The position numbers and the translations under genes are program-made. A DNA stretch of 64,000 nt from Blastocatellia bacterium AA13 (lineage in GTDB: Bacteria > Acidobacteriota > Blastocatellia > UBA7656): contig QHVH01000023.1 of assembly GCA_003222245.1 (NCBI GenBank), forward strand, positions 21,215 through 85,214, given 5' to 3'. Under the pieces are notes generated by a model, which worked only from the letters and a program-made list of their open reading frames with translations, was not told where the DNA came from and ran no database searches. The first letter of the stretch is position 1. The number at the start of each line of letters is the position of its first letter. Positions 5,309 through 18,080 of the stretch are shown here, one piece after another.

Positions 5309-6052
5309 ATGCAGAAGATCGCAAAGCTCGCCATCGTCGTAGCGTTCGTCACCGCCGCTTTCGCCCAGTCACCTGAGCCGCCAATCAAGGATTCGAGGCT
5401 CTCCATTCACACCCTGCTCCGAGAAGATATATTCGCCGGTTTTCTGACCGACGACATGGAGCGATTCAATAGGGGAGAAAAGAACATTCAAGCTCTTATG
5501 GAGCTACGGCCCACGCAGAAGGCCGAGCTTCTGGCCTGGAAAGGCGGCGCGACTCTCTATAGAGCCGTACGCGCGCTGGAGAATAATCAGAAGGAAGAGT
5601 TTCAACGATATTACAAGTCCGCGCTGGAGTCCTTTTCACAAGCACGTGAACTCGATTCCCGGAATGGCGGTGTGTCGGCCGTGACCGGAGGCAGCCTCGC
5701 GATATTCGCCGATCGGCTCCCCAAGGAGTATCGCGCCGCGGCGTGGTCACAGGCATATGAGTCCTATCAAACTCTATGGAAGCAACAATCGGCGATGGCC
5801 GAGCGTCTGCCGCTGCACCTGAAAGGTGAATTGCTTGGAGGTCTCGCTCAGTCAGCGCAGCGCACGGGACACACCGAAGAAATGTCCCAGGCGCTGGATA
5901 AGATCATCGCGATAATTCCCAACTCGCCATATGAATCGGTCGCAAAGAAATGGAAGGCGAATCCGAAGGCGGCCGAGAGCGCCGGCATCACCTGCCTTAG
6001 CTGCCACGACGGCGGAAGGCTCTCGGCCCGATTATCCGAGGTAAACAAATAG
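5309..6052 (+). CDS. Secreted hypothetical protein with C-terminal CxxCH haem-binding-like motif
   Basis: Signal peptide MQKIAKLAIVVAFVTAAFAQS and a helical body. The C-terminus has ITCLSCHDGG, a single CxxCH. RBS GGAGG lies 8 nt upstream. Confidence 0.55.
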   Translation: MQKIAKLAIVVAFVTAAFAQSPEPPIKDSRLSIHTLLREDIFAGFLTDDMERFNRGEKNIQALMELRPTQKAELLAWKGGATLYRAVRALENNQKEEFQRYYKSALESFSQARELDSRNGGVSAVTGGSLAIFADRLPKEYRAAAWSQAYESYQTLWKQQSAMAERLPLHLKGELLGGLAQSAQRTGHTEEMSQALDKIIAIIPNSPYESVAKKWKANPKAAESAGITCLSCHDGGRLSARLSEVNK

Positions 6053-6187
6053 TAAGAAAGAAGCGGATCGCAAAACACGAGCCGGTCGCGCGATGGAGAT
6101 CAACTCATCAAGCGAACGGCTCTTTTGAAGTTTTATCCGTCGGACTGTGTGCGGCGCAGGTAGGCGGGAATAGCGGGCGCGGAAATA

Positions 6188-6238
6188 CTGAGAGGGATGA
6201 CACAGCCCCCGTTGCGTCATCCCTCTCAGCTTTTTTTT
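6188..6238 (+). terminator. Rho-independent terminator: 14-bp perfect stem + T8
   Basis: CTGAGAGGGATGAC (6188-6201), a 14-nt loop, GTCATCCCTCTCAG (6216-6229), then CTTTTTTTT. Lies downstream of the 5309-6052 gene. Confidence 0.6.
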
Positions 6239-6506
6239 ACTACTATTGTCTGTCGCTTCTCTCAGTCTTGCCGTGATCAACGGAGCCCCCTTTCCCTCGA
6301 TCACCGCGTAACTTTGTTAAGCTACGCCTTAGCAATTGGCAACGCTTATGCCACAGGCGAATGGCCCGTGCAGGTATGCTAAGTCCTTCAAATATGCGGA
6401 AGCGCTTCAGCGCCGCGCGCATCGCTAACAAAACTCGTCATTCCACGAGTGACAGATTGTGTTAGCGCGATAGTGGAGGATGAGAGTCTTTCGGTGTGCA
6501 TATTAC

Positions 6507-7643
6507 TCATAGCGCGCCTAGAGGGTTGATGCCGGCTCTTTCAAGGATATGCCACGAGATCCGCTGAAGCGGCACCACATCATCCACCGCTCCCCGTGCG
6601 ATGGCTTCCTTGGGCATGCCAAAGACCGTGCACGAGGCTTCATCCTGAGCAATCGTCACAGCTCCCGCCCGCTTCATCTCGCTCATTCCCTCCGCGCCGT
6701 CGTTTCCCATCCCGGTCATTATCACTCCAATGGCGTTGTACCCGACTGATTTGGCGACGGAATGGAAGAGCACGTCCACGCTGGGACGGTGACGCGAAAC
6801 CAGAGGGCCGTCGCTTACTTCAACGGCGTAGCCGCCTCCAACGCGAACTACCGAGATATGATGATTTCCCGGCGCCACCAGCGCCATTCCCGGCTTCAGA
6901 ATGTCCCCGCTTGCAGCTTCTTTGACATGGATTCGACATAGCTGGTTCAAGCGGTTGGCAAAGGCCGCCGTGAATCCTTCCGGCATATGCTGAACAATGA
7001 CGATCCCCGGCGCGTTTGAGGGCATCGCCTCCAGCACCATCTTCAAGGCCTCGGTTCCGCCGGTGGAAGCTCCAATCGCGACAACTTTGTCCGTGCTAAC
7101 GACCGCTGAGAACTTGCCGGGCATCACCAGCGCGCCGGTCTTGAATCTCTGCATGGCGGGAGCGGCGGCCGAACGGCTGCGCAAGCGAGACTCCGCGGCG
7201 CCGCGTATCGTGTCGATTAATAGGAGCGCCGACTCCTCCAGAAAATCACGGACACCCACCTTTGGTTTAGCAACAATCTCGACCGCGCCTTCTTCAAGGG
7301 CTTTCACTGCCGCTTCCGTTCCCGGGCCCGCCGCACCTGAGCAAATTACGACCGGAATCGGATCCTCGCTCATGATCTTGCGCAGGAAGGTAAGGCCATC
7401 CATCCGGGGCATCAGGACATCGAGCACTATTACATCCGGCCGCTCGACTTCCATCTTTCTCATCGCGAAGTAAGGATCGGCGGCGACGGTTACTCTCAGG
7501 CCCTTGTCTCTGGAAAGGATTGAGGTCATGGCTTGACGGACTACGGCGGAGTCATCTACTACCAGCACGTTCAAAACTGATTGAGCGCCATGGCCGCTCC
7601 GCTCGTCTATTCGATCTGTGATTCCATCTCCTCTCATCCCCAT
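6507..7643 (-). CDS. cheB: Chemotaxis response regulator protein-glutamate methylesterase CheB
   Basis: Receiver domain (VLVVDDSAVVRQ...DVIVLDVLMPRMDGL) followed by methylesterase domain (VVAIGASTGGTEAL...GVIMTGMGNDGAEG...TIAQDEASCTVFGMP). Confidence 0.85.
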   Translation of the reverse strand: MGMRGDGITDRIDERSGHGAQSVLNVLVVDDSAVVRQAMTSILSRDKGLRVTVAADPYFAMRKMEVERPDVIVLDVLMPRMDGLTFLRKIMSEDPIPVVICSGAAGPGTEAAVKALEEGAVEIVAKPKVGVRDFLEESALLLIDTIRGAAESRLRSRSAAAPAMQRFKTGALVMPGKFSAVVSTDKVVAIGASTGGTEALKMVLEAMPSNAPGIVIVQHMPEGFTAAFANRLNQLCRIHVKEAASGDILKPGMALVAPGNHHISVVRVGGGYAVEVSDGPLVSRHRPSVDVLFHSVAKSVGYNAIGVIMTGMGNDGAEGMSEMKRAGAVTIAQDEASCTVFGMPKEAIARGAVDDVVPLQRISWHILERAGINPLGAL

Positions 7644-14484: not shown

Positions 14485-14734
14485 AGCATGTGAGTTCACA
14501 CCGCTGTCGAAGGTCCCGGAGTGCAGTAATCTTTTCGCGGAGTTCGAGCCGATTGACCTGACGGCTCGATAACGATCGATTCGTTTCAATTATGACAAGA
14601 GTCTGAAAGCATTGTACGGGCGGGCCTCGGCGTCCGCCCCTTTTCGCGCTTGATATTTTCTAAGAGAGCATCACCAGTACGCTGGCATAGGACTGGGACT
14701 TACCCGGATCTCTTCAAGAAGAATTATCGAGTCG

Positions 14735-14753
14735 CTCTCACATTGCGTAGCAC
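14735..14753 (+). repeat. 19-bp perfect direct repeat, copy 1 (CTCTCACATTGCGTAGCAC); left boundary of the low-GC islet
   Basis: Identical 19-mer recurs at 16862-16880, and the flanks show extra partial identity. GC content drops between the two copies. Confidence 0.8.
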
Positions 14754-14829
14754 TCTATTCCTGCGTTGCTCCTAATTTTCTAGTTTTCCTCGAAAAGGAT
14801 GCATAATCGCCGAGCCATTGGCGAACAAT

Positions 14830-14898: not shown

Positions 14899-15267
14899 AT
14901 GTCCCTTATGGGCGACGGTCGCGAGTATGCTATCTGGCTTGATCTGTTGATGCCAGCCCTTCAGGAAGAATCAGTCAAAGCCGAACAAACCGCGAGGCTC
15001 TTTCATTCTCTGCTCGTGGAGATCGAAAACAATCCACAAGGCTCGCTGCATGCTATAGAGTGTCTTGAAACCGCTCTAGCGGTGGCGTTCTCATTCACTC
15101 CGATATATCCGACAAGTCACATCCTATTTCAGGCTTCGCTTGATGAAGACCTCCTGGCTGGTCTGGATTCAACGGAGCGATTGATGGAAGCCATGAGGCG
15201 AGTGAAAGCAGAGCTGAAACGGGACTCAAGATCGCAACCAAAGACAAGTCGTAGACGAAAGGGCTAG
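14899..15267 (+). CDS. Hypothetical acidic helical protein (islet cargo)
   Basis: 122 aa with no recognisable motif; RBS GAGGAAAG upstream. Lies inside the low-GC islet and converges on the SecB-like gene. Confidence 0.4.
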   Translation: MSLMGDGREYAIWLDLLMPALQEESVKAEQTARLFHSLLVEIENNPQGSLHAIECLETALAVAFSFTPIYPTSHILFQASLDEDLLAGLDSTERLMEAMRRVKAELKRDSRSQPKTSRRRKG

Positions 15268-15303
15268 AGAAAGAAATAAGGTAGTAATTGCTCTAAAATA
15301 TTT

Positions 15304-15762
15304 TCACGCGCCTAGAGCTTTCCTTGTGGGTCTCTTCGCTATTCCCTTCTTATCTAACGGCAGGAATGTCACTAGAGGCAAAATGCTAATAGGGTACGGA
15401 CTTCGGGAGGCGAGAGTTATTATCGTCTCTCGCGCAGCCGAATATAGCACTGCCGGACCGTTGGTTTTTGCCAATAACGCAACCTTCTCCAAAGGATAGC
15501 GAGGATCTACTTCAAAGAAACCGACATATGTAACCACAAATGAGTAAGGGGGCTTTGACCGTGATGGCTGTTTAGTACGCACCGTGACCTCACAACGCCA
15601 CTTGTAGGGGTCTCTCGCATCCTGCTCAGCTTTGTGTGTTATGTCTAGGTTGACTCTCCCGGAATCAACAGATTTCTCCGGTAAATTCTCCAAAGGAGAT
15701 ATCGACTCAAACCGTGCCTCCTTTAGATAATATCCATCAAGCTGCAAAGGCGAGGGTAGCAT
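15304..15762 (-). CDS. SecB-like chaperone (putative TAC-system chaperone)
   Basis: 152 aa. Aligns along its whole length with E. coli SecB from memory: YYLKEARFESISP~YTKDISFEAPN, WRCEVTVRT~YEVVLRVTV, and VLYSAARETIITLASRSPYPISILPLVTF~[29 protein letters not shown]. Confidence 0.8.
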   Translation of the reverse strand: MLPSPLQLDGYYLKEARFESISPLENLPEKSVDSGRVNLDITHKAEQDARDPYKWRCEVTVRTKQPSRSKPPYSFVVTYVGFFEVDPRYPLEKVALLAKTNGPAVLYSAARETIITLASRSPYPISILPLVTFLPLDKKGIAKRPTRKALGA

Positions 15763-16450
15763 TATCAGCCTCCGTACCTAGCGTTAGCGGAATTTCATTT
15801 AATGAGTCAATTGCCAATGGTACCTCGTACTCAGAAAGCCCTCGGTCGAGAACTTCACAACCTTCTAGGGTCTCGCATAAGGTTTCTGTTTCAACCAGAT
15901 CGAGTATGAGTCGCTCGAACAGAACTGCAATTTCAGAACTGTGCGCCGATTTGCTAGCAATCGTGCATTTTGCGCTTGACATATTCGCAGCTCGCGTATT
16001 CACAAAAAGTACTGGGCTCGGCGGACGGCCACCTTTTTTACCGTTCTCCCTAGCTGCCAAGGTCTTTCTATCCGATATGACACGTCCGCCCTGTTGCCCT
16101 AATCGAGCCATCCATCTGCGTGTTCCAAAGATACCTTCGACCAACTCAGGAACACCGAGATCGATATCTAGGGTATTCCATCGCAATGCCGTACCATCTC
16201 CAACGACAGCGACATCAGCAATGTCTTCCGTACTAGCCCCTACCAGTCCCTCGACACAATCGACGGGAAAGATAAAAGTCTTTTCATCTTCAAGATTAAG
16301 TACTATACGCCCGGAGTCACGATCGTATTCGACGCTTCGCGCGTGCGGTTGTGTTAGCCTCGCTTTTTCCCCTCGCTTTGTAGCTTCTGCGAGCTGACGA
16401 TCAAGTTCATCCTCATCGTATTCCCATTTACCGTCTTTTAACTTAGCCAT
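15737..16450 (-). CDS. DUF2442-domain protein with ~40-aa N-terminal and ~100-aa C-terminal extensions (putative antitoxin with chaperone-addiction tail)
   Basis: Core RSVEYDRDSGRIVLNLEDEKTFIFPVDCVEGL...GTALRWNTLDIDLGVPELVEGIFG matches the DUF2442 pattern, followed by a basic KTLAARENGKKGGRPP segment and a ~100-aa tail. The ATG (16448-16450) overlaps the DUF4160 stop by 8 nt (ATGGCTAAGTAA), and the 3' end overlaps the SecB-like start by 26 nt. Confidence 0.7.
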   Translation of the reverse strand: MAKLKDGKWEYDEDELDRQLAEATKRGEKARLTQPHARSVEYDRDSGRIVLNLEDEKTFIFPVDCVEGLVGASTEDIADVAVVGDGTALRWNTLDIDLGVPELVEGIFGTRRWMARLGQQGGRVISDRKTLAARENGKKGGRPPSPVLFVNTRAANMSSAKCTIASKSAHSSEIAVLFERLILDLVETETLCETLEGCEVLDRGLSEYEVPLAIDSLNEIPLTLGTEADNATLAFAA

Positions 16451-16682
16451 GAATTTCCCTCCACTTCCTGAGCAGATAGCTCTGCTTCTGAGCAACTATC
16501 GCAAGTGCTCTTTTTGCATCTCTTGTGCTCATTTTATTCTCCCGAAAGGAAGGAGCAGTACGACTATCGCCGAGATTGATTATTACTACTCTTCCGGCCT
16601 TAAATACGTGTACGTGTGAGGGATTATGATCGTTAGAATAGATACGAAATGCAAAGCCATCTTGCCTCCATACCTCTGCCAT
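16443..16682 (-). CDS. DUF4160-domain protein (putative toxin partner of DUF2442)
   Basis: 79 aa; FRIYSNDHNPSHVHVFKAG...RALAIVAQKQSYLLRKWREIHG matches the DUF4160 signature (YxNDHxPPHxH). It is the first gene of the three-gene minus-strand operon. Confidence 0.8.
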   Translation of the reverse strand: MAEVWRQDGFAFRIYSNDHNPSHVHVFKAGRVVIINLGDSRTAPSFRENKMSTRDAKRALAIVAQKQSYLLRKWREIHG

Positions 16683-16711
16683 TCAAGGTGTCCCTTATTG
16701 ACACCAAGCCA

Positions 16712-16740
16712 ATACTAACCTAACCAGCTTGGGTTGTCTA
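16712..16740 (-). promoter_or_regulatory. Putative sigma70-type promoter of the DUF4160-DUF2442-SecB operon (TAGACA-17 nt-TAGTAT)
   Basis: Minus-strand reading: TAGACA (16740-16735), a 17-nt spacer, TAGTAT (16717-16712), then 29 nt to the ATG at 16682. Confidence 0.35.
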
Positions 16741-16861
16741 CTAGGTAATGGTATAGATCAGCGATCTGTTACTCTTTTGACTTGGCCATGCCAAAACTAT
16801 AGCACGATGGTTTTCAGGTAGGAAAAGTTTCATTCGTGACAGCAACGCAGATTAGAGCACT

Positions 16862-16880
16862 CTCTCACATTGCGTAGCAC
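16862..16880 (+). repeat. 19-bp perfect direct repeat, copy 2 (CTCTCACATTGCGTAGCAC); right boundary of the low-GC islet. Overlaps a putative -35 (TTGCGT) with TATACT 19 nt downstream
   Basis: Identical to 14735-14753. Followed by TTGCGT...TATACT and then the small zinc-ribbon ORF and hemB. Confidence 0.8.
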
Positions 16881-16912
16881 GGCGCCTTCTTTGTTATACT
16901 CGCAATCTCGAA

Positions 16913-17101
16913 ATGGCAATTTGCACCGTCTGTTTGCAGTCCGATAAGACGGCCCGGATGACCAAATGCGCCGGGTGCTTCAAGCCCATCTGCGAGGACT
17001 GCGGGCTCAGGCGGTACGGAAAATCATTTTGCAATCAGAACTGCTCTGCTGTCTTCTTCTTCGGCGCCGACCCTGACGAAGAAGAAAAGAAGCCCGCTTA
17101 G
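16913..17101 (+). CDS. Small Cys-rich zinc-ribbon protein
   Basis: 62 aa with four Cys pairs (CTVC...CAGC...CEDC...CNQNC). Ends 13 nt before hemB. Confidence 0.5.
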
Positions 17102-17114
17102 AAGGATCCGTGCA

Positions 17115-18080
17115 ATGGAACTTATACAACGCCCGCGTAGACTCCGCCGCAACGAGCAGCTTCGCACGCTCGTTCGAGAAACCGCTCTCACGCCATCCAA
17201 TTTCGTCTACCCGCTATTTGTATGTGAAGGCGAAGGGGTCAAACGGGAGATCGCTTCAATGCCGGGCTGCTACAACATGTCGATCGACAACCTTGTCGAG
17301 GAGGTCGGTTTCGCGCGGAACGAAGGGATAAGCTCGGTCATCCTGTTTGGCGTTCCGGACGAAAAGGACGCGGCCGGATCGGGAGCTTACGCCGAAGACG
17401 GCATAGTCCAAAGAGCGACTCGCTCCCTGAAACGTCATTTCAACGATATTCTCGTGATCGCCGACAATTGTCTTTGCGAATACACGGATCACGGCCACTG
17501 CGGCGTGATCGACGACGGCGAGGTGCTGAACGATCCGACGCTCGATCTTCTTGCTCGAACGGCCGTCGCCCAAGCTCAGGCGGGCGCGGACATTATCGCG
17601 CCTTCGAACATGATGGATGGGTTTGTGGCGGCGATCCGTTCCGCTCTGGATCGACAGGGTTACGAAGGCGTGCCTGTGATGTCCTATGCAGTCAAGTACG
17701 CATCCGGCTTCTATGGTCCTTTTCGGGAAGCTGCTCAATCGACTCCGCGGTTTGGGGATCGTAGCGGATATCAGATGGATCCGGCCAACGTGCGTGAAGC
17801 TCTCCGCGAGGCCGCGCTCGACGTGGAGCAGGGAGCGGACATTCTAATGGTGAAGCCGGCGCTTCCCTATCTCGATATAATTCGCGCGGTCAGGGAACGG
17901 TTCGATTTACCCGTGGCTGCGTATCAGGTGTCCGGCGAGTACGCGATGATCAAGGCGGCGGGCCGAATGGGATGGATCGACGAAACGCGAGTTATGATCG
18001 AGTCGCTTACTTCAATCAAGAGGGCGGGCGCCGAGATCATACTGACCTACTTTGCGCGGGACATGGCTCGGGCGCTGTGA
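17115..18080 (+). CDS. hemB: Porphobilinogen synthase (delta-aminolevulinic acid dehydratase)
   Basis: 321 aa: [30 protein letters not shown] and the active-site region [17 protein letters not shown]. Confidence 0.9.

Follow-up and report, generated by a model that had tools for sequence, protein, structure and literature searches.

Could a toxin-antitoxin pair of the DhiT/DhiA type have come under the control of a SecB-like chaperone? The question is raised by a locus in a 64,000-nucleotide stretch (hereafter, the window) of contig QHVH01000023.1 from a metagenome-assembled genome, Blastocatellia bacterium AA13, in which a DUF4160 gene, a DUF2442 gene and a SecB-like gene follow one another with overlapping ends. 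Toxin-antitoxin-chaperone (TAC) systems serve as a model for the gating of a toxin by a chaperone, and recent work indicates that the chaperone can sense phage. A first-pass annotation, made from the sequence letters alone, had proposed that the three genes constitute such a system, and our follow-up supports this proposal in silico through profile matches, the SecB fold of the third product, the conservation of a tail on the antitoxin and the DUF2442 neighbourhood of the chaperone's relatives. With a probability of roughly 0.78, we regard the triad as a TAC operon built upon a DhiT/DhiA (DUF4160/DUF2442) core, in which the SecB-like protein guards the tailed antitoxin. The direct evidence concerns the gene anatomy, the identity of domains and folds, the confinement of the extension to homologues with a linked chaperone, the conserved synteny and the kinship of the chaperone.

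Gene anatomy and protein families

Read along the minus strand, the gene order is toxin, antitoxin, SecB-like chaperone. The open reading frame (ORF) list and Pfam together define a DUF4160/DhiT-like toxin gene of 79 amino acids (aa) at 16443..16682 (PF13711), a DUF2442/DhiA-like antitoxin gene of 237 aa at 15737..16450 (PF10387) and a SecB-like chaperone gene of 152 aa at 15304..15762 (SecB, PF02556), with all three Pfam matches above the curated cut-offs. The antitoxin is counted here from the ATG at 16450; the listed ORF, which begins at an upstream TTG, comprises 252 aa, and the ATG start is backed by homologues that begin MAKLK, MAKMK or MSKKK. The toxin stop and the antitoxin ATG overlap by 8 nt (ATGGCTAA, 16443-16450), the 3' end of the antitoxin gene overlaps the start of the SecB-like gene by 26 nt (15737-15762), and a Shine-Dalgarno-like motif (AAGGGA, GGAGGG and GGAGG) lies 6-8 nt 5' of each of the three starts. 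The first-pass description of three overlapping minus-strand genes is therefore accurate, including the 8-nt length of the first overlap; only its quoted string, ATGGCTAAGTAA, was a slight misreading of the true sequence, ATGGCTAAGTTAAA.

The first product carries HNPSHVH at aa 19-25, as part of the signature D18-H19-x-P21-x-H23-V24-H25, and matches DUF4160 (PF13711) at 6.6e-13 (49 bits, cut-off 23), in agreement with the 79-aa DUF4160 protein originally named. A sequence search of the PDB returned no relative of this protein, and its single match in PHROGs is to a family of unknown function. The statement that the functions of DUF4160 and DUF2442 are unproven, in contrast, was wrong: they are the DhiT/DhiA system, validated in 2021 as a toxic, neutralised and autoregulated toxin-first type II toxin-antitoxin in Dickeya dadantii and Escherichia coli (PMC8198452). 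The DUF4160/DUF2442 pairing is also described in PMC12065111, where no confident structural homologue of DUF4160 was obtained. We fetched 160 loci with antitoxin relatives from genome and metagenome scans and searched them with profile hidden Markov models; a DUF4160-like ORF stands immediately upstream of DUF2442 in 107 of them.

The antitoxin matches DUF2442 (PF10387) at 1.3e-11 over aa 38-108. A profile of its N-terminal domain retrieves PDB entry 3k8r at 2e-39 and also 2x8n, both of them structural-genomics entries, and the AlphaFold2 model is confident over aa 11-100, with a predicted local distance difference test score (pLDDT) of 84-95. Following the Pfam domain is a motif conserved throughout the antitoxin subfamily, GIFGT..WM...S..K..A.RENGKKGGRP (aa 106-143; 16022..16135, minus strand), which stands out in alignment A1 as a set of invariant columns. 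With lengths of 132-164 aa, the majority of homologues end a few residues past this motif. The motif weakly resembles, short of significance, the minor-groove arm of serine invertases (DNA-invertase) and is probably an AT-hook-like DNA-binding arm.

Part of the motif also occurs outside the antitoxins. The segment S..K..AAR.NGKKGGRP(R)K is found alone at the C-termini of many unrelated ORFs that lack DUF2442 (viral contigs L171-L250 and many of L128-L162), which gives it the look of a C-terminal module that is portable and probably binds DNA. Four longer proteins, P0094 (478 aa), P0110 (597 aa), P0182 (436 aa) and P0207 (364 aa), start with DUF2442 and the GGRP module, which suggests that the antitoxin domain has been fused to other domains.

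The third product, currently annotated as hypothetical in the AA13 genome, was called SecB-like at first pass, with an overlap of 26 nt into the tail of the antitoxin, and three lines bear this out. The protein matches SecB (PF02556) at 5.2e-8 (33.3 bits, cut-off 26); a profile built from it and its 20 relatives retrieves Haemophilus influenzae and E. coli SecB from the PDB at values from 9e-7 (1fx3) to 2e-5; and its AlphaFold2 model (pLDDT 81.6), composed of four strands and one long helix, is matched by Foldseek with probability 1.0 to 1qyn and 1fx3 (E. coli/H. influenzae SecB) and to 5mtw (Rv1957). Against the NCBIfam models of housekeeping SecB, on the other hand, the score is only 15-27 bits, with equivalog cut-offs of 103-277; the best value is 26.5 bits (cut-off 143), and TIGR00809 gives 23.5 (cut-off 102.8). 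A SecB fold combined with scores this far under the housekeeping cut-offs identifies the protein as a SecB-fold paralogue rather than an ortholog of the export chaperone.

The four SecB proteins that resemble one another most (the window protein, P0002, P0003 and P0004) are each linked to DhiTA genes. Together they make up a single clade, which is nested among the chaperones of HigBA-type TACs (L003, L165, L166 and L168), where the chaperone gene comes after a Gp49/HigB-like toxin and an extended helix-turn-helix (HTH) antitoxin. On viral contigs, related chaperones come after MqsA-like (L169) and HigA-like (L170) antitoxins; these contigs contained two SecB-type TACs and no DhiTA triad. The likeness extends to the junction between the second and third genes, across antitoxin families: the antitoxins end ...NATLAFAA in the window, ...DETFSVAA in L168 (HigA type) and ...NENFALAA in L169 (MqsA type), and the SecB start lies 26 nt inside the antitoxin gene in the window, L164 and L168. 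The conservation of this junction suggests that the end of a chaperone-addiction (ChAD) extension and the chaperone gene move as one DNA unit.

The antitoxin extension and its association with the chaperone gene

The antitoxin continues for 129 aa past the Pfam domain, and its lineage-specific part is a ChAD-like extension of 94 aa (aa 144-237; 15740..16021, minus strand) that ends L-A-F-A-A-COOH and is missing from the short homologues. We set its beginning at aa 144 because the preceding motif is conserved in those short homologues; the unusual tail of about 100 aa noticed at first pass is thus real, but it starts after ENGKKGGRP and not straight after the Pfam domain. Downstream of GGRP, the median tail is 9 aa in 159 related loci, compared with 95 aa in the window. 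AlphaFold2 assigns the extension a pLDDT of 33-62, and the extension on its own matches no Pfam family.

Given that most homologues are so much shorter, the long ORF might have been created by an assembly error or frameshift that fused a short DUF2442 gene with downstream sequence. This artefact explanation is effectively refuted. An antitoxin from an independent assembly (P0022) is 99% identical, and P0023, the closest homologue of full length, shares 58% identity across the entire protein, including the tail. The same arrangement of genes, with an antitoxin of 240-266 aa, is present on at least six other contigs. Moreover, tail lengths are bimodal: HMMER, run exhaustively against 1.84 billion representatives, yielded 1985 antitoxin relatives at E<=1e-3, and among the best 150 of these, 68 have fewer than 30 aa after GGRP while 39 have 75-150 aa. 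With 39 long-tailed members in that set, the chaperone-type architecture is common in metagenomes and not a singleton. The counts of Ala-Ala ends given below refer to the same best 150 of the 1985 representative relatives.

A second alternative must be weighed against the neighbourhood data. According to this alternative, an ordinary two-gene DhiTA system merely lies beside a SecB-like gene that has another job, whether as a general or export chaperone or as one that serves the toxin; the tail is then an unrelated regulatory or DNA-binding appendage without chaperone addiction. Support for it can be drawn from several sources. The tail of the antitoxin in one related triad (L087) displays a weak ribbon-helix-helix match (RHH_5, E=0.004), the chaperones of TACs can replace E. 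coli SecB in export (PMC5105189), the window tail is acidic, unlike the M. tuberculosis ChAD, and a long tail occurs without a chaperone in L252, as discussed below. Opposing it is the distribution of the chaperone gene. Among those fetched loci whose downstream sequence extends for 500 nt or more, a SecB-like gene follows the antitoxin in 3/3 long-tailed cases (the window, L001 and L087) and in 0/99 short-tailed ones. Also opposing it are the 26-nt coding overlap, which is conserved among triads, the position of the chaperone clade among TAC chaperones and far under the housekeeping SecB cut-offs, and the location of the module within a foreign-looking islet. We consider this alternative improbable.

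Besides the window, the triad is present on at least five contigs (L001, L164, P0003, P0023 and P0066), each with a Pfam SecB gene or, in the P0023 contig, a truncated third gene. Context look-up gave gene lengths of 86/251/172 aa for L164, 80/265/162 aa for the P0003 contig and 92/266/164 aa for the P0066 contig; in the P0023 contig, toxin and antitoxin are 79/240 aa and the third gene is cut by the contig end, and L251 provides a further triad. The overlaps recur together with the genes. The toxin and antitoxin share 8 nt in the L001, L164, P0003, P0023 and P0066 contigs, and the antitoxin and chaperone share 26 nt in the L164, P0003, P0023 and P0066 contigs; L001 has a 12-nt gap instead. 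Two of the checks that the first-pass annotation had called for, that the closest SecB homologues adjoin DUF2442 genes and that the triad recurs elsewhere, thus came out in its favour, the recurrence being with mostly the same overlaps. The matches listed by the scans (600 stretches each) were almost all short two-gene relatives, with L087 as the only new triad, and the family is consequently undercounted there.

The third gene in L087 (3762-4259) and L251 (1517-2035) belongs to a second family, characterized by the motif NTWPYWRE...MGWP (alignment A4), which has 30 relatives, including one in Calidithermus terrae, and no Pfam assignment. Its similarity to SecB is remote: the Pfam SecB model matches at E=0.014, hhalign gives probabilities of 31-40% (E=3e-4 at 40%) and the best PDB match is Rv1957 at E=0.003. 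On this profile evidence, homology to SecB is probable, and a divergent SecB-like chaperone has here probably been acquired on a separate occasion.

Two features of the extension invite comparison with known ChADs, and the first of them is the more robust. It is the terminus: an Ala-Ala end is present in 20/39 long-tailed antitoxins (nine of them in LALAA) and in 6/73 short ones (p=6e-7), and would, judged by its sequence, constitute an ssrA-like ClpXP-type degron. As a unique marker of long tails, Ala-Ala had to be rejected, since about 8% of short relatives also end AA. The second is the placement of aromatic residues. The window extension contains exactly four, F149/F178/Y208/F235, with spacings of 29/30/27, and the L164 tail also has four, with spacings of 25/31/24; the chance of such regular spacing under random placement is about 0.003. 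An aromatic periodicity of about 30 residues across the family is no more than suggestive.

A number of observations weigh against the TAC interpretation. The extension is acidic, with a composition-derived pI of 4.2. The tail of P0023 contains 0 aromatics, and the family-wide histogram of aromatic positions, counted back from the C-terminus, has maxima near 30, 60 and 90 residues but no clear autocorrelation. The Ala-Ala codons are shared with the start of the SecB-like gene, which encodes a conserved N-terminus, and part of the -AA conservation may therefore stem from the SecB reading frame; L003 and L165 retain -AA without any overlap. In L252 (399-1187), the tail of the DUF2442 protein measures 128 aa, yet no SecB-like gene accompanies it, and the neighbouring gene, on the other strand, encodes an AbiEii toxin; the locus has no recognisable DUF4160 ORF, and the 57-aa ORF upstream has no Pfam match. 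This exception makes the rule linking tail and chaperone strong rather than absolute, and not every long tail is a ChAD. Finally, the toxin scores 29.5 bits (8e-7) against the NCBIfam model toxin_DhiT (NF048015), for which the cut-off is 100. It is thus not an equivalog of the Dickeya DhiT, and its toxicity is extrapolated from a distant relative. The tails of different triads give no convincing alignment, and ChAD homology is for this reason not demonstrable past the last ~10 residues.

The distance of the toxin from the validated DhiT also lends itself to a third alternative, in which the module has decayed or been domesticated, so that its ORFs are intact without toxin-antitoxin action, for example with a non-toxic DUF4160 protein or as an antitoxin-chaperone pair that acts as a regulator only. 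Toxin-less 'AC' systems do exist (PMC3581621), and the islet that carries the module encodes no mobility gene. Set against this are three ORFs of full length, a preserved D-H-x-P-x-H-V-H signature, good ribosome-binding sites, overlaps identical to those on independent contigs, and the diversity and upkeep of the family, with 39 long-tailed clusters among the best 150 representatives. Decay, like mere adjacency, strikes us as an unlikely account of the locus, and a TAC operon remains the preferred one.

The islet and its surroundings

The proposal of a lower-GC islet bracketed by direct repeats agrees with the GC profile and with a perfect 19-mer. The GC fraction is 0.43-0.49 over approximately 15000-16900 and 0.55-0.58 in the flanks, in keeping with the observation that most surveyed TACs reside in lower-GC islets (PMC3581621). 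A repeat scan located two perfect copies of the 19-nt direct repeat CTCTCACATTGCGTAGCAC, at 14735..14753 on the left and at 16862..16880 on the right; these are the only copies in the window, even allowing up to three mismatches, and 0 are expected. The repeats enclose 2.1 kb that hold the operon and one further ORF of 122 aa (14899..15267, plus strand), convergent with the operon and without a Pfam or PHROG match. We tried this ORF as a fourth component and rejected it, as its positional counterpart in L164 is dissimilar; it belongs to the islet and is probably not part of the module.

The direct repeats are adjoined on their inner side by a short inverted repeat with imperfect arms, CTGCGTTGCT / AGCAACGCAG (14762-14771 / 16842-16851). 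Nineteen nucleotides is long for a target-site duplication, and the islet is devoid of a mobility gene. The ORF list and a tRNA scan gave no integrase, transposase or tRNA. An origin as an integron cassette or as a tRNA-targeted island is unsupported, there being no tRNA in the window, no further repeat copies and no integrase. Elsewhere, triads are often situated near insertion sequence (IS) transposases (L001, L164 and the P0066 contig) or restriction-modification genes (L087). In L001, approximately 1.1 kb downstream of the triad (5576-7524), there is a second set of three genes encoding a HigB-like toxin (98 aa), a 380-aa protein with HTH_3 and Peptidase_M78 domains and a 166-aa protein of no family; an opposite-strand gene of 316 aa, with no Pfam match on record, lies between the two three-gene sets, and two transposase genes lie upstream of the triad.

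Potential control elements precede the operon. A promoter-like site, TAGACA-17-TAGTAT (16712..16740, minus strand), lies roughly 30 nt ahead of the ATG of the toxin gene; it was assigned by consensus match, and such sites are not above the chance number in the region. An imperfect palindrome just upstream of it, TTTTGACTTGGCCATGCCAAAA (16775-16796), is a possible operator at consensus level only.

The genes that flank the islet are of a housekeeping nature: a glyoxalase-family protein, hemB (17115-18080) and a response regulator. Right upstream of hemB, and beginning 33 nt from the right-hand repeat, is a Cys-rich ORF of 62 codons (16913-17101, plus strand), which has a CxxC...CxxC...CxxC pattern, an acidic/lysine tail and no Pfam match. 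On the left, a hairpin rich in GC with a run of T after it, GGGCGGGCCTCGGCGTCCGCCCCTTTT (14620-14650, plus strand), lies about 85 nt before the repeat and is terminator-like for the upstream gene; a simple terminator scan did not list it.

A proposed mechanism and its precedents

By analogy with characterized TACs, the three genes would share one transcript, and the 8-nt and 26-nt overlaps would couple their translation. The DUF4160 protein would act as a growth-inhibiting toxin that is neutralised by the folded N-terminal domain of the DUF2442 protein, while the ENGKKGGRP arm would probably repress the operon. The extension of 94 residues, presumably disordered, would destabilise or aggregate the antitoxin and would carry an Ala-Ala degron of the ssrA/ClpX type. 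A tetramer of the SecB-like protein could bind and shield the extension, thereby keeping the antitoxin functional. Clients denatured under stress, or a phage structural protein as happens in E. coli HigBAC and CmdTAC, might titrate this chaperone, upon which the antitoxin would be degraded and the toxin set free. The toxic activity and its neutralisation, the binding by the chaperone, the proteolysis and the trigger are accordingly predictions for the triad, taken over from its relatives.

More tentatively, and with doubts greater than our confidence, the triads could be imagined as a widespread, undescribed family of chaperone-gated abortive-infection systems, in which the SecB-like protein is a phage sensor, the DUF4160 protein has a new fold and a new activity, and SecB-like chaperones have been captured independently at least twice (in the present clade and in the 'NTWPYWRE' family of L087/L251). 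None of the three window proteins matched the PADLOC defence models.

How does the triad relate to systems already described? The first-pass annotation correctly listed HigBA, MqsRA and HicAB as the pairs found in TACs, but the list was incomplete, with the ADP-ribosyltransferase system CmdTAC belonging to it too. The antitoxins on record are HigA, MqsA, HicB, MqsA-like and HTH-like (PMC3581621, PMC5105189) together with CmdA (PMC11618068). In terms of toxin-antitoxin cores, the TACs described to date comprise HigBA, MqsRA, HicAB, CmdTA and two unclassified groups that are HTH/MqsA-like. In all known TACs, the toxin gene comes first (PMC3581621). The searched literature, which omits much subscription material, contained no paper dealing with DUF4160 and SecB together. 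The chaperone-controlled layout is therefore known for other toxin families, and a DhiTA-type core for it has not been reported in that literature.

One close parallel in architecture may be drawn with Mycobacterium tuberculosis HigB1-HigA1-SecB^TA (Rv1955-Rv1956-Rv1957). Like the window locus, it has the order toxin, antitoxin, chaperone, a chaperone of SecB fold, an antitoxin extension that is missing from two-gene homologues, a small-aliphatic degron end (Val-Ala there, Ala-Ala in the window) and a position within a horizontally acquired region or, in the window, a foreign-looking one. The two also differ: its core consists of a RelE-fold RNase and an HTH antitoxin in place of DUF4160 and DUF2442, its ChAD is 45 aa long and basic/aromatic whereas the window extension is 94 aa long and acidic, and the two chaperones are 13-17% identical in Foldseek structural alignments.

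An extension of similar length is known from E. coli. The ChAD of E. coli NT1F31 HigA comprises 96 aa, is predicted to be unstructured and wraps the SecB tetramer via W128/F158/F188/Y214 (bioRxiv 10.1101/2024.02.24.581848), which gives it, like the window extension, four aromatics about 30 aa apart. The Ala-Ala end of CmdA and the Val-Ala end of M. tuberculosis HigA1 are experimentally demonstrated ClpXP degrons (bioRxiv 10.1101/2024.02.24.581848; PMC8165232); the window antitoxin shares the Ala-Ala end of CmdA as a sequence feature alone. In E. coli HigBAC and CmdTAC, the pair of ChAD and chaperone is modular and transferable between toxin-antitoxin cores, and, with the DhiTA clade set aside, the nearest relatives of the window chaperone belong to pairs of a Gp49/HigB-like and an HTH protein. 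The window triad differs from HigBAC and CmdTAC in the families of its toxin and antitoxin, in the lack of a prophage context and in the lack of a PADLOC match.

Housekeeping SecB (E. coli, H. influenzae) has the same fold as the window chaperone, and the match is collinear along the whole protein; Foldseek TM-scores (template modelling scores) for the window chaperone against the SecB and Rv1957 chains are 0.49-0.70. Unlike housekeeping SecB, the window chaperone is encoded by a gene that overlaps an antitoxin gene, and the C-terminus is basic in its clade. The C-terminus of canonical SecB is acidic.

With respect to the core, the precedent is Dickeya dadantii 3937 DhiTA (PMC8198452), in which, as in the window, a DUF4160 toxin gene comes first and overlaps that of a DUF2442 antitoxin. 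The Dickeya system consists of two genes, without tail or chaperone, and the antitoxin subfamily of the window has the additional ENGKKGGRP motif. The window triad would thus represent a new toxin-antitoxin family within the known TAC architecture.

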